Source: Escherichia phage Louie
Sequence record: PQ850616.1
Length of the DNA stretch: 38,040 nucleotides
Reading direction: 5' to 3' (one strand)
Positions within the stretch are counted from its first letter, which is position 1, and each line of letters opens with the position of its first letter. The notes under the pieces are model-generated. The model did no database searches and had not been told where the DNA came from. It saw only the letters and a program-made list of their open reading frames with translations. The position numbers and the translations under genes are program-made. Below are positions 18,937-22,203 of the stretch, one piece after another.

Positions 18937-19197
18937 TTACCGCACCTCCAGTCTCCATACCGCCTGACCAATCCGGCTGGCATAGGTATCTTTGGATACT
19001 GCTCCGTCTTTAGCCAGCTCCATAAGAATTTTGCGCAAATCTGCCGAACGCCATTCCTCATCAGGAAATTCCTTCTCCATTGCCAACCGCAGATTCCAGG
19101 TTGCTATCGTGAATGGATATTCCCCGCCGAGAGCTTTCTCTTGCAGGGCAGAACGGGAACGCATCACCTGCAAAACCTTCTCTTTTACATCCATCAT
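18937..19197 (-). CDS. Hypothetical early protein (86 aa)
   Basis: Start MMDVKEK with AGGAGG RBS; ATGA overlap with upstream gene stop. Confidence 0.55.
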   Translation of the reverse strand: MMDVKEKVLQVMRSRSALQEKALGGEYPFTIATWNLRLAMEKEFPDEEWRSADLRKILMELAKDGAVSKDTYASRIGQAVWRLEVR

Positions 19198-19982
19198 TTT
19201 GCCTCCTGCGGCGGTTCCGGTAGCGGCATCCAGTGTGATGGTATCCACGACGCACCTGGAATTATCCACCCATCATTAGCGTCAGGATGCCCCGGGATGT
19301 AAGTCGCCCATTTCATTCGCCAGTCACCTTTCCTGTCAAACTCCCTGGCAACAAGAACGGCTGTTTTGGTATCCGGCATTCGCTCACTACAGCTTATCCA
19401 ACCATCCGGAGTTACCGGAGAGCTGCCACCCTGAACAGTAGGCATATCCGGACCTTTGCGAATCGCCCTGGCAAGATCGATTGGGTCGTCGTACAACCAG
19501 TCACCTGTTTGCGGATGATTGGCTTCTGCCAATTGTGCAGCCCACTCCAGGCCGTCTTTGTGTCCTTGCAGATAGTCCAGCGGTAACTCATCACTATTAC
19601 TTACAGGTTCGGCCTGAAGCATGGCGGCGCGATAGGCGTTCCAGCCGACAGCTTTTCCGTGTTCAAACGCGCTGTCAAAGTCATCATCCATTTCCATCGC
19701 AGCGGGCACAGATACCGGCGCTGGAGGGACGGTGTAGAGCGGCTTAATTTGCAAGGCTGTATCCGCTTTGTACGCAATCGCCTGTGTCATGTTTTCCAGA
19801 AGTTGCGTGCCAACCATATACGCCACAGGCTCTGCTTCGAGCGATGCCAGTGCTATACGCGCATTATTAATCAGGAGGCTATCAGCAGGAGATAAAACAA
19901 CATGAGCGTTTCCCTCCGCATCAATTTCAGAATTCGTAATTTTTCTGAACAGCTTTGCCAGTTCTCTGGTAATAGTGCTCAT
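19194..19982 (-). CDS. DUF551-like C-terminal domain protein (262 aa)
   Basis: C-terminal …PDGWISCSERMPD…GWIIPGASWIPSHWMPLPEPP resembles the DUF551 signature found in lambdoid prophage Ea proteins (recall). Confidence 0.65.
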   Translation of the reverse strand: MSTITRELAKLFRKITNSEIDAEGNAHVVLSPADSLLINNARIALASLEAEPVAYMVGTQLLENMTQAIAYKADTALQIKPLYTVPPAPVSVPAAMEMDDDFDSAFEHGKAVGWNAYRAAMLQAEPVSNSDELPLDYLQGHKDGLEWAAQLAEANHPQTGDWLYDDPIDLARAIRKGPDMPTVQGGSSPVTPDGWISCSERMPDTKTAVLVAREFDRKGDWRMKWATYIPGHPDANDGWIIPGASWIPSHWMPLPEPPQEAK

Positions 19983-20257
19983 GGGCGAATCTCCGTCCTG
20001 CCACCAAGTAAGCGGATTGCCACTCGTTCCCGGAAGGTAAGCGGTCGATGGTGTCCGCGGGCATTAACAATTTCAGGCTTTCCATTAGGCGGATAATTGA
20101 CCCTGACCGATTGACCATCTAGCGCGTGAGAAGCCTCGAGTAGTGCTGACTTTAAGTGCGCAGGGCACTCTTTCTGCACCCGCTCGCCGTCTGAAATGAC
20201 ACCTGCAATCCCCTGAAGCATGCTGGCTAAATTGCTGAGATAATTTTTCACATTCAC
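19979..20257 (-). CDS. Hypothetical early protein (92 aa)
   Basis: ORF with 4-nt overlaps to neighbours (operon packing). Confidence 0.5.
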   Translation of the reverse strand: MNVKNYLSNLASMLQGIAGVISDGERVQKECPAHLKSALLEASHALDGQSVRVNYPPNGKPEIVNARGHHRPLTFRERVAIRLLGGRTEIRP

Positions 20258-20688
20258 TCTCCTTTACCGGCTGCGGCGGCCGGCATATCGCACATGTTTG
20301 TCGGATGCGGGTTTTCGCGAATAATTCGAGCCATTCGTGCCGCTGGGGTTTCTGTCTCTTCGTTGAATTCACGAATTACAGCCGCCAGCTTGTCGGCGTC
20401 AGCAGGTGAAATATCACCATCGATAAACATAACCGGCTTACCCTGCGTCGCCTCCAGCTCAGCAATCCGCTTCTCTGCGGCTTCCAGCTCATCCAGCAGC
20501 GCCAGCACGGTGGCGGGGTTGGCTGCGGAGTTCAGCGCGTTCAAGGCAGTGATATCTGCATCAAGCTGAGTTCCTTCTGCCAGTGAGATATCGAAAATGT
20601 CATCAGGCGGCATAACACTAAGGCGCTCATGTGCGCCAACTGCTGCCGCTGCGATTTCACGCAGCGCCTGTTTGTCGATGTTGCTCAT
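20254..20688 (-). CDS. Hypothetical protein, possibly Ead/Ea22-like (144 aa)
   Basis: N-terminal …DKQALREIAAAA… and coiled-coil segment resemble Ea22-like prophage proteins (recall, weak). Confidence 0.5.
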   Translation of the reverse strand: MSNIDKQALREIAAAAVGAHERLSVMPPDDIFDISLAEGTQLDADITALNALNSAANPATVLALLDELEAAEKRIAELEATQGKPVMFIDGDISPADADKLAAVIREFNEETETPAARMARIIRENPHPTNMCDMPAAAAGKGE

Positions 20689-20957
20689 TGGGCGGTTCCT
20701 TCGTAACCGATGGCTTCTGCAATTTCAGCAAGTGTCTCTGCACTTTCACCCACTGGCTCATTCATCCAGTCGAAGGAAACAAGCTTACCGCCTTCGATAA
20801 CGCCGATGTTGAAATCATCACTACCTTGTGTTTTCAGACCATGCTTGATTGCCTTATCGCGCTTATCGAAGTCAACGCCGTCTGTCGTGTATTCAACTCC
20901 ATGGCCTTTCTCGTTGCACCACCAGTACTGCTGAATAACGATGTATGATTTGCTCAT
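20685..20957 (-). CDS. Hypothetical early protein (90 aa)
   Basis: ORF, tightly coupled to neighbours. Confidence 0.5.
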   Translation of the reverse strand: MSKSYIVIQQYWWCNEKGHGVEYTTDGVDFDKRDKAIKHGLKTQGSDDFNIGVIEGGKLVSFDWMNEPVGESAETLAEIAEAIGYEGTAQ

Positions 20958-21433
20958 AGCGCGGCTCCTTTGCGAATTTGCTCCCTGAACAAGCGGGCTG
21001 AGACGATGATGTCTCTGATGCGTACTGATTTTTCGTCGAACTGCTCACCACCGTTTTTAATATGCGCATCCAGTTCTGCACTGTGATGCCGAATGAAAGC
21101 GTTGAGGTCATGCGCCCGCACTTCAGCCAGGAAAGCATCGGTGGCTGGGGTTTCAGGTATCTGTCTCCTCATCCGTTCTATTGCATGATTGAATCCGAAG
21201 TCTTCAGCAAGAGATACGTCATCCATATTGTCATTGTCAGCATCAATATCCCGTAGTTGAGGAATTGCAGACTTTATTCCCGCATTCTCCACCGCCAGTG
21301 CCGCGCACTTGGCCTCAGCTTCAGCAAATTTACGCACCAGATATTCAGCATTTGTTTCGTTAACCTTTAAATCTCGTGGGATGCATTTACCTTTCAGAAA
21401 ACCATCCATCTCAATTAGTGACATTTGTTTCAT
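20954..21433 (-). CDS. Hypothetical early protein (about 159 aa; GTG alternative start at 21451)
   Basis: [12 protein letters not shown] with GGAG 9 nt upstream; track ORF begins at GTG 21451. Confidence 0.55.
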
Positions 21434-21594
21434 TTTTTCCCACTCCGCCACATCGCATTCAGATATTTGTTTTGATTCACTGATGGAAAAGAATTTCTCT
21501 TAAGCAATTCCTCTCTCGATGGCATTGGCTTTACGCGTTGGCGAATAATCATTTCTGCCGGAAGAATGCCGGGATTGTATGCAAGTCCTCTCAT
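21430..21594 (-). CDS. Small hypothetical protein (54 aa, below threshold)
   Basis: ATG with GGAG RBS; ATGA overlaps at both ends linking the 93-aa and 159-aa genes. Confidence 0.35.
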
Positions 21595-21872
21595 GATTTA
21601 CTCTCCACTAACTGGTCAATAGCCATGCTAAGTGACACACCTAAAGTCTCAATATGCTGCTGAATATCCTGTAGCGTCCGCGCTTGAGATAACAGAATTT
21701 CACGGTTGCATAACTCTTTAACCAGATGCTCAAACTTGCTGTAATAACCGATACGGCTTAGTCTTTCTTTCCCTGCATTCTCGCCTTCTTTGATAATTCC
21801 TCTTTCATTAAGAATCAGGTCGTATTTTGTTCCAGTAATAACGTATTTTCCGAGGTCGATGTTCAGCTTCAT
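21591..21872 (-). CDS. Hypothetical early protein (93 aa)
   Basis: ORF in leftward operon. Confidence 0.5.
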
Positions 21873-21888
21873 TGTTAATTACTCCATG

Positions 21889-22203
21889 TTAATTTATTCG
21901 TATGCCTGCTCTTTCTTCATCGAGTTTTTTTAGCTTGTATCGCATAGCTCTTACTGAATAAATTGAGCGGCAGGTTGCAATTGCTATTTCTTCTGCGGAG
22001 AACTTACCGAAAAGTGATACTTCGGCTCTTGTCCAGCGTCTTCCACGAAGTCGGCTAACAATGTCAGCGCCAATCCTTGTTGCTTTCGCCATTACTGCTT
22101 TTTCAGTCCTTTCCAGTTTTTCAGCGATAACTTCAACTGGCATTGTCGCCGCTACTTCGCGCAAGAAATCGACTTCCCATTTCTCCCAAGGAGTCTTTTT
22201 CAT
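21889..22203 (-). CDS. Hypothetical early protein (104 aa), basic
   Basis: ORF in leftward operon; Trp/Arg-rich, possibly nucleic-acid binding. Confidence 0.5.
   Translation of the reverse strand: MKKTPWEKWEVDFLREVAATMPVEVIAEKLERTEKAVMAKATRIGADIVSRLRGRRWTRAEVSLFGKFSAEEIAIATCRSIYSVRAMRYKLKKLDEERAGIRIN

Follow-up and report, generated by a model that had tools for sequence, protein, structure and literature searches.

Which genes occupy the space between the excision gene xis and the recombination genes of Escherichia phage Louie, and do any of them counter host defenses? The question goes back to an earlier look at record PQ850616.1 from its letters alone (hereafter the sequence-only reading), which named this interval a reasonable place for anti-defense factors. 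The window analyzed is the whole stretch of 38,040 nt, and all positions are counted along it. Between xis and the recombination (Rec) module, an unbroken run of minus-strand genes fills the space without gaps. With high probability, the interval belongs to a P22-like E. coli prophage and forms the promoter-distal part of its early-left (pL) operon, which is N-antiterminated; it is made up of a flank on the side of the Rec module and a hypervariable array of cassettes. One cassette gene, orf159, is by its sequence a clear homolog of Oad2, an inhibitor of P2 OLD, and belongs to a run that begins with a predicted MuGam-type anti-RecBCD gene. The earlier choice of this locus as a place to look was therefore a sound one. 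The probability given here applies to the explanation as a whole, namely the pL-operon accessory region, its two parts, and the proposed modes of action. The genes of the run are listed from upstream to downstream.

22215-22697, minus strand: gp157-like gene of MuGam type (Pfam Sipho_Gp157, 5e-38; phrog_253 'Mu Gam-like end protection', 1e-54)
21889-22203, minus strand: orf104, 104 aa, basic protein with tandem helix-turn-helix (HTH) units (phrog_323, 2.8e-20, and AlphaFold2 model)
21591-21872, minus strand: orf93, 93 aa, DUF5405 / phrog_154 (Pfam 5.5e-7; phrog_154 4e-31), facultative member of the flank
21430-21594, minus strand: orf54, 54 aa, basic DUF2737 protein (Pfam 2.6e-31), upstream edge of the variable array
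20954-21433, minus strand: orf159, 159 aa, EaE/Oad2 family (BLASTP against Oad2, and phrog_614), candidate anti-defense gene
20685-20957, minus strand: orf90, 90 aa, small acidic alpha/beta protein with an invariant SDDFN motif
20254-20688, minus strand: orf144, 144 aa, Ead/Ea22 family (Pfam Ead_Ea22, 2.8e-21)
19979-20257, minus strand: orf92, 92 aa (or 90 aa from GTG 20251), variable cargo (phrog_14964, 7e-63)
19194-19982, minus strand: orf262, 262 aa, EaA-like with a C-terminal DUF551 domain (Pfam and BLASTP)
18937-19197, minus strand: orf86, 86 aa, 'Eaa protein' in the sources, variable cargo (phrog_2814, 8e-51)

The sequence-only reading had described ten leftward open reading frames (ORFs) between xis and the Rec module, nine of 86, 262, 92, 144, 90, 159, 54, 93, and 104 aa and the gp157-like gene, and this inventory agrees with the list. 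The range assigned to them, 18937-22203, agrees only in part. Nine ORFs lie inside it, the gp157-like gene at 22215-22697 falls outside, and orf55 (18662-18829) had been omitted. The claim that most genes are joined by ATGA or 4-nt overlaps was accurate. Exact ATGA overlaps occur at six junctions (orf93 to orf54, orf54 to orf159, orf159 to orf90, orf90 to orf144, orf92 to orf262, and orf262 to orf86), and orf144 meets orf92 in a GTGA overlap or across a 2-nt gap, depending on which start orf92 uses. The 2-nt gap, with the GTG start at 20251 and a product of 90 aa, is more likely, since this start lies at a better distance from the AGGAG sequence, the match to the PHROG profile starts at residue 3, and at least 1000 contigs encode exactly this 90-aa protein. 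The two remaining junctions of the run are gaps of 11 nt and 16 nt. The sequence ATGAGC (Met-Ser) was observed at the starts of five ATGA junctions (19982, 20688, 20957, 22697, and 24056, minus strand), and these make up five of its ten occurrences on the minus strand within a 9-kb stretch. Such recurrence might stem from a boundary sequence common to the junctions or from constraints on the codons behind the overlap.

Coupling extends further upstream. An ATGA overlap joins orf103 to RecT, RecT and an HNH endonuclease gene overlap by 14 nt, and a further ATGA overlap joins the HNH gene to the gp157-like gene. Hence, the run is not a self-contained operon. The ten-gene operon proposed earlier gives way to the distal end of the pL early-left operon, with N, cIII, and the Rec module upstream. 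We infer this placement from the anatomy of the region and from the established organization of lambda and P22. The same strand carries, further upstream, a lambda-type N gene (93% identity) together with a repressor gene and a gene resembling cIII, and a predicted pL-like promoter occupies 26695-26667. Inside the array no promoter was detected, and promoter-like sites are fewer there than expected from shuffled sequence. The P22-like character of the prophage is evident in the terminase, portal, scaffold, coat, and other virion proteins, which are 73-93% identical in amino acid sequence to those of P22. The genome is a hybrid, in which P22-like virion genes are combined with the lambda-type N and an HK140-type RecT/MuGam Rec module; the gene 23 antiterminator is P22-like (97%), and the repressor is merely 37% identical to P22 C2. 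In a pL operon of this kind, the cargo genes would be silent in the lysogen and would be transcribed on infection or induction within one long leftward transcript. Translation would pass from gene to gene by ribosome hand-over, a coupled re-initiation at the ATGA stop/start overlaps.

To score flank against cargo, each protein of the window was compared with 80 IMG/VR loci whose orf104 is 99-100% identical. gp157 was matched in all 80 and adjoined orf104 in every one of them, RecT was likewise matched in 80/80, and orf103 was matched in 77. The DUF2737 protein orf54 was found in 79 loci (77 at 90% identity or more), orf55 in 54, and orf93 in 36. Matches to orf86, orf90, and orf92 numbered seven, one, and zero, respectively. 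Proteins resembling orf262 occur in 58 loci, orf159-like proteins in 44, and orf144-like proteins in 21, the last as partial matches only; none of the three kinds reaches 90% identity over the full length. The conserved or semi-conserved flank on the side of the Rec module thus consists of gp157, orf104, orf93, and orf54. The true hotspot extends over about 18830-21433, from the DUF2737 stop to orf55, and contains orf159, orf90, orf144, orf92, orf262, and orf86. The distance between these two boundaries ranges from 215 to 3702 bp across the loci and is 2601 bp here. Across 54 regions (53 related loci and this window), 45 protein clusters form 45 gene arrangements. The sequence-only reading had called the whole set an Ea/accessory hotspot. 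The term suits the cassette array, given this number of arrangements and the parallels with the P22 ea and lambda exo-xis regions, but four of the ten genes belong to the flank.

The first cassette position, immediately after DUF2737, ranks among the most polymorphic positions of these prophages. In 75 loci with a conserved flank, this slot holds 63 distinct proteins, including EaE/Oad2-type and Ead/Ea22-type proteins and several unrelated small proteins. Whatever the occupant, the slot gene starts at the same ATGA overlap (21430-21433 here) in 74 of the 75 loci. The ATGA register is therefore not a product of chance, and cassette exchange keeps the stop/start overlap exactly. Cassettes swap by recombination at exact gene boundaries, and also within genes behind conserved N-terminal segments.

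At the nucleotide level, no phage record or complete E. coli genome covered 80% or more of the region by megablast, the best reaching 57%, and no genome covered at least 80% of the orf144-orf90-orf159 block. The exact sequences of orf86, the 90-aa form of orf92, orf90, orf54, and orf104 occur on hundreds to more than 1000 contigs. Those of orf262, orf144, orf159, and orf93 occur on one to five contigs only. The mosaic is new but built from common pieces, and this type of locus is already known. The region itself is a textbook lambdoid/P22 accessory region, and its worth is practical.

The anti-defense question centers on the gene that fills the slot in the window. A bioRxiv preprint of July 2026 (10.64898/2026.07.10.737580) reports that HK446 gp27, named Oad2 (OLD anti-defence 2), binds and inhibits P2 OLD. 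According to the same preprint, OLD is an abortive tRNase that fires upon inhibition of RecBCD, for example by lambda Gam, and Oad2 is described by its authors as related to P22 EaE. Full-length BLASTP alignment of orf159 with Oad2 gives 42% identity at E 1e-36. The two proteins share 34 of 36 N-terminal residues and the motif [14 protein letters not shown]. A shorter match links orf159 to P22 EaE (39% identity over 77 aa, E 5e-9), and orf159 (3e-49), Oad2, P22 EaE, and HK140 gp36 all match phrog_614, each at E 1e-49 or below. Genomic position tells the same story. HK446 gp27 overlaps the DUF2737 gene directly before it by 4 nt and sits in the slot that orf159 occupies through its ATGA overlap with orf54, and the order of this slot after DUF2737, beside an anti-RecBCD gene, is the same in HK446, HK140, and P22. 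The BLASTP match, the shared PHROG, and the common slot together place orf159 in the EaE/Oad2 family.

Members of this family occupy the slot in 42 of the 75 loci, as 38 distinct proteins of 132-265 aa. Their N-terminal segment of about 38 aa has a median identity of 94.7%, compared with 42.4% for the remainder. orf159 also matches the C-terminal part of the Ead_Ea22 profile (29.7 bits; Pfam 1.1e-6). The notion that orf144 and orf159 are halves of one split Ead/Ea22 gene was considered and rejected: it is the upstream gene that carries the C-terminal part of the profile, and it belongs to the separate EaE/Oad2 family.

The conserved neighbor gives this family its proposed context. The gp157-like protein matches Pfam Sipho_Gp157 (PF05565) at 131 bits along the full profile (positions 1-162), and together with the PHROG match this identifies it as a predicted MuGam-type DNA-end-protection and anti-RecBCD protein of the Rec module. 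As Oad2 does for OLD, orf159 would neutralize an abortive-infection guard that is set off by the phage's own RecBCD inhibitor, here gp157. Such a guard-countering role would be the best-supported single case among the cargo, with a specificity that probably differs from that of Oad2.

Several points weigh against this account. In the body of the protein, orf159 and Oad2 share only 37% identity, and an HK75 homolog that is 54% identical to Oad2 is inactive against OLD (bioRxiv 10.64898/2026.07.10.737580). Given these two values, a direct transfer of anti-OLD activity from Oad2 to orf159 is unlikely. The conserved N-terminus and variable body could also come from recombination, not from selection on an inhibitor interface; the slot pattern fits an evolving inhibitor interface and equally recombination behind a conserved linker. 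In addition, transcription, antitermination, and translational coupling are deduced here from sequence, and the functions of the cargo proteins are deduced rather than demonstrated for the proteins of this window.

A more specific version of the account can be formulated, although it is speculative and on balance unlikely. In it, orf159 is a re-targeted Oad2-type inhibitor, whose invariant 38-residue N-terminal module is joined to a body that has diverged to meet another guard of RecBCD integrity. The slot would then be a general 'anti-guard' locus, and orf90 with its Ead/Ea22 partner would form a second inhibitor module. The new target may be another OLD-family ABC-ATPase/TOPRIM system, such as Gabija, PARIS, or Septu, or a retron that would otherwise be triggered by the MuGam-like protein. 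If re-targeting is true, the 60-plus alleles of the slot constitute a library of specificities. In practical terms, the window contributes to the newly described Oad2/EaE anti-defense family a natural allele, orf159, that is divergent and placed beside a MuGam-type and not an Abc2-type RecBCD inhibitor. Its polymorphism makes the slot a defined target at which the specificity of inhibitors toward OLD-like and other RecBCD-guarding systems could be mapped cheaply.

The second conserved flank protein, orf104, belongs to a narrow family confined to Enterobacteriaceae. It contains two HTH repeats of the form 'W..E..L...IA..T.RS..SV..R..L', and relatives of 152 aa contain three. Its AlphaFold2 model (predicted local distance difference test, pLDDT, 82) consists of two three-helix units, for which Foldseek against the PDB returned only non-significant neighbors among bipartite-HTH DNA binders. 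P22 Abc1 (1.3e-23) and orf104 (2.8e-20) both match phrog_323, partly along different stretches of the profile. Direct comparisons did not reach significance: BLASTP gave no match and hhalign a probability of 14-16%, even with an Abc1 family alignment, the family being too narrow to raise sensitivity. By position and modeled architecture, orf104 appears Abc1-like, and it is a possible but unconfirmed member of the Abc1 family. Phage Gally (4164-4478) encodes the same 104-aa protein under the label 'Anti-RecBCD protein 1, similar to P22 Abc1'. P22 Abc1, which is orf116 in the accessory-gene screens of Silas et al., is reported in the literature to aid P22 recombination, to have a broad counter-defense phenotype, and to cause P4-dependent cell death in those screens. 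Toward the array, orf54 is 75% identical to P22 orf56 by BLASTP, and the equivalent of orf93 in HK446 (gp29) sits between abc2 and DUF2737.

Profile searches for each ORF, which the sequence-only reading had named among the checks on its proposal, placed six ORFs above the curated Pfam cut-off. The families concerned are DUF551, Ead_Ea22 (twice), DUF2737, DUF5405, and Sipho_Gp157. Every ORF, including orf86, orf90, orf92, and orf55, also matched a PHROG family at E 1e-20 to 1e-63. The earlier statement that several members have no recognizable family was therefore too strong; what they lack is an assigned function, not a family. An NCBIfam scan of all ORFs gave no meaningful match, and a PADLOC-DB v2 scan gave no credible defense-system match. 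The single PADLOC match was marginal and linked the coiled-coil part of orf144 to HEC-01A (E 0.001, 16 bits). Sequence searches of the PDB with orf86, orf90, orf104, orf144, orf159, and orf262 found no significant match, and literature searches on DUF2737/DUF5405 and the P22 EaA/EaD genes returned nothing useful.

Among the other cargo, orf144 matches Pfam Ead_Ea22 (PF13935) at 77 bits (cut-off 27) along profile positions 1-111. It is an acidic protein comprising the conserved N-terminus and the coiled-coil part of the family, and its first 11 residues are those of P22 EaD. Ead/Ea22 proteins are known to combine a conserved N-terminus and a coiled coil with swapped C-terminal domains (PMC10834534). 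Lambda Ea22 is tetrameric according to the literature, and Ea22 of lambda and Shiga toxin (Stx) phage is pro-lysogenic (PMC7093339, PMC10834534). By analogy, orf144 would bias the lysis-lysogeny decision as those proteins do. More generally, the cargo proteins would act as stand-alone early effectors that bind proteins of the host or of rival elements.

The ORF described earlier as DUF551-like is orf262, and the profile search agreed: residues 194-259 match DUF551 (PF04448) with E 1.2e-20 and 74.5 bits (cut-off 22). DUF551 is a portable domain that also occurs in YfdS, as reported in the literature. By BLASTP, orf262 is 36% identical to P22 EaA in the N-terminal part and 45% in the C-terminal part. 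At 97-98%, one half of orf262 matches some genomes and the other half matches others; by megablast, coverage of the gene stays below 80% in every phage and complete E. coli genome, and the exact protein occurs on one contig. To judge from these matches, orf262 is an intragenic recombinant allele.

The orf90 family spans Enterobacterales and retains the invariant SDDFN motif, and its AlphaFold2 model is confident (pLDDT 92; predicted template modeling score, pTM, 0.81). In all eight distinct genomic contexts, orf90 is overlapped by its upstream gene, and in seven of them an Ead/Ea22 gene comes next. The two travel as a unit, in early-left ea regions and also between the replication and nin genes of early-right operons. 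The NCBI name 'antitoxin' for orf90 has no support from Pfam, NCBIfam, PADLOC, PDB sequence, or fold comparisons. In the eight contexts, no conserved toxin-like partner was found; the neighbors are EaE-like and Ead/Ea22 genes. orf92 is basic (isoelectric point, pI, 10), and its exact 90-aa form is shared by E. coli and Enterobacter contigs. Beyond its PHROG family it had no match in Pfam, NCBIfam, or PADLOC. The same holds for orf86 in Pfam, NCBIfam, PADLOC, and the PDB, and its exact sequence occurs on about 1000 contigs. orf90, orf92, and orf86 are flagged as widespread orphans with no structural or functional relative.

How these proteins act as a group can be explained in more than one way. 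The cargo may consist of regulators of phage development and host physiology, governing lysis-lysogeny, induction timing, and host replication or cell cycle, with no part in immunity. We consider this a serious possibility that falls somewhat short of an even chance, and it is compatible with the best explanation, not exclusive of it. Ea22 favors lysogeny, and the exo-xis region alters lysogenization and induction (PMC7093339, PMC3824215, PMC10789677). The DUF551 protein YfdS is tied to oxidative-stress tolerance and the yfdQRST cluster inhibits replication initiation, according to the literature. Within the window, the Ead/Ea22 N-terminus and coiled coil of orf144 and the DNA-binding type of protein predicted for orf104 point the same way. 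However, the phenotypes of Ea22 are modest and their mechanism is unexplained, and ea8.5, orf60a, orf61, orf63, and lambda Ea22 have no BLASTP counterpart here (orf73 was outside the comparison set). Regulation likewise leaves unexplained why the alleles of the EaE/Oad2 slot are so highly diverse. A different reading extends immunity to the whole variable array, as an anti-defense island in which each cassette is a dedicated inhibitor of a different immune system beside the anti-RecBCD gene. Extreme cassette turnover between near-identical flanks, the acidic nature of several products (pI 4.5 for orf90, 4.4 for orf144, and 4.7 for orf262), and a proven inhibitor in the EaE/Oad2 family all speak for it. 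So do the general enrichment of counter-defense genes in accessory regions reported in the literature and the proposal of the Oad2 authors that recombination-linked hotspots are reservoirs of anti-immunity proteins (bioRxiv 10.64898/2026.07.10.737580). We nevertheless rate the island as rather unlikely, because evidence for anti-defense concerns one of the six cargo families and is allele-specific. Experiments on the equivalent region of lambda and Stx phages point to effects on lysogenization, induction, and host physiology, not on immunity; the DUF551 and Ead/Ea22 domains are portable and present in many other contexts; and the orf90-Ead cassette occurs in early-right nin regions as well.

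Protection of the lysogen, through prophage defense or toxin-antitoxin cargo, is far less probable. The 'antitoxin' name given by NCBI to the orf90 family and the frequency of defense morons in prophages would suggest it. No ORF has a credible PADLOC match, orf90 has neither a Pfam or NCBIfam match nor a conserved toxin partner in its eight contexts, and overlaps tie the genes into an early operon that is repressed, with no promoter of their own detected. Still closer to exclusion is the view that the small ORFs are decaying or non-functional filler. Their functions are unassigned, and one related prophage does contain a DUF2737 pseudogene. Yet no reading frame is broken, the genes hold precisely to the ATGA register, and exact proteins recur on hundreds to thousands of contigs. 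Moreover, different genera retain the orf90 family, which has invariant residues and a confidently modeled fold. Filler is thus contradicted by the conservation of the genes. The accessory region of the pL operon, with its flank and cassette array, remains the preferred explanation.

The two ends of the region are marked by the following features.

22694-23161, minus strand: HNH (AP2-type) endonuclease gene between RecT and gp157, overlapping both
18849-18900, minus strand: two terminator-like hairpins, within the 107-nt gap 3' of orf86
18662-18829, minus strand: orf55, homolog of lambda orf55 (lambdap35; phrog_676, 3.8e-37)
18653-18672, minus strand: strong intrinsic-terminator-like hairpin and T-run, immediately 3' of orf55, where HK140 is annotated with a rho-independent terminator
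18404-18604, minus strand: small HTH gene resembling xis, 66 aa, which bounds the region downstream (weak Pfam matches to HTH_17 and AlpA)

At the upstream end, the HNH gene occurs in three of the 80 loci, which have identical gp157/orf104, and it resembles a mobile homing endonuclease that inserted into the Rec module. At the downstream end, the order 3' of orf86 is two hairpins, orf55, the strong hairpin with its T-run, xis, and int. The hairpins at 18849-18900 likely end the coupled run unless transcription is antiterminated. Bracketed by terminator-like hairpins on both sides, orf55 stands apart from the coupled run and from xis; it is 93% identical to lambda p35 over 55 aa by BLASTP. The same 66-aa xis-like gene comes after orf55 in other prophages too, and HK140 has an equivalent that its annotation calls an AlpA-family regulatory protein. 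Scanning the entire window with Rfam and for tRNAs gave no hits.

The region can be compared with several known systems. In P22, the ea region reads eaC-eaG-eaA-eaI-eaD-eaF-orf45-eaE-orf56 and lies between xis and abc2/abc1/erf. The region described here has the same position and orientation in a P22-like genome. It also shares the order of an anti-RecBCD gene, DUF2737 (orf56), an EaE-type gene, an Ead-type gene, an EaA-type DUF551 gene, and xis. The Rec modules differ, with RecT, HNH, MuGam-like, and orf104 genes here and Erf, Abc1, and Abc2 in P22. Moreover, eaC, eaG, eaI, and eaF are absent from the window, orf90, orf92, and orf86 have no P22 counterpart, and orf55 is lambda-like. Like P22 Abc1, orf104 is a small, basic HTH protein whose gene lies at one end of the Rec module, next to an anti-RecBCD gene. 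Unlike Abc1, it shows two clear HTH units, a number that rises to three in its relatives.

The exo-xis region of lambda and Stx phages, composed of orf60a, orf63, orf61, orf73, ea22, ea8.5, and orf55, likewise lies between the recombination genes and xis. Both regions have an Ead/Ea22 member and an orf55 (93% identical), together with early pL expression (which is inferred here) and the mosaic architecture described for Ea22 (PMC10834534). In contrast to lambda, no BLASTP match to orf60a, orf63, orf61, or ea8.5 was found in the window (again leaving orf73 aside), and orf144 lacks the C-terminal domain of Ea22, with no PDB sequence match.

HK446 carries Abc2 as the anti-RecBCD neighbor, whereas the neighbor here is of MuGam type. 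The Rec module of HK140 has been classed as SAP-4 (RecT) with a MuGam anti-RecBCD protein (PMC12315714), and the block from orf103 through RecT, gp157, orf104, and orf93 to orf54 is 95-99% identical between HK140 and Louie. The two genomes differ in the HNH gene inserted here between RecT and gp157 and in the cargo that each carries downstream of DUF2737.

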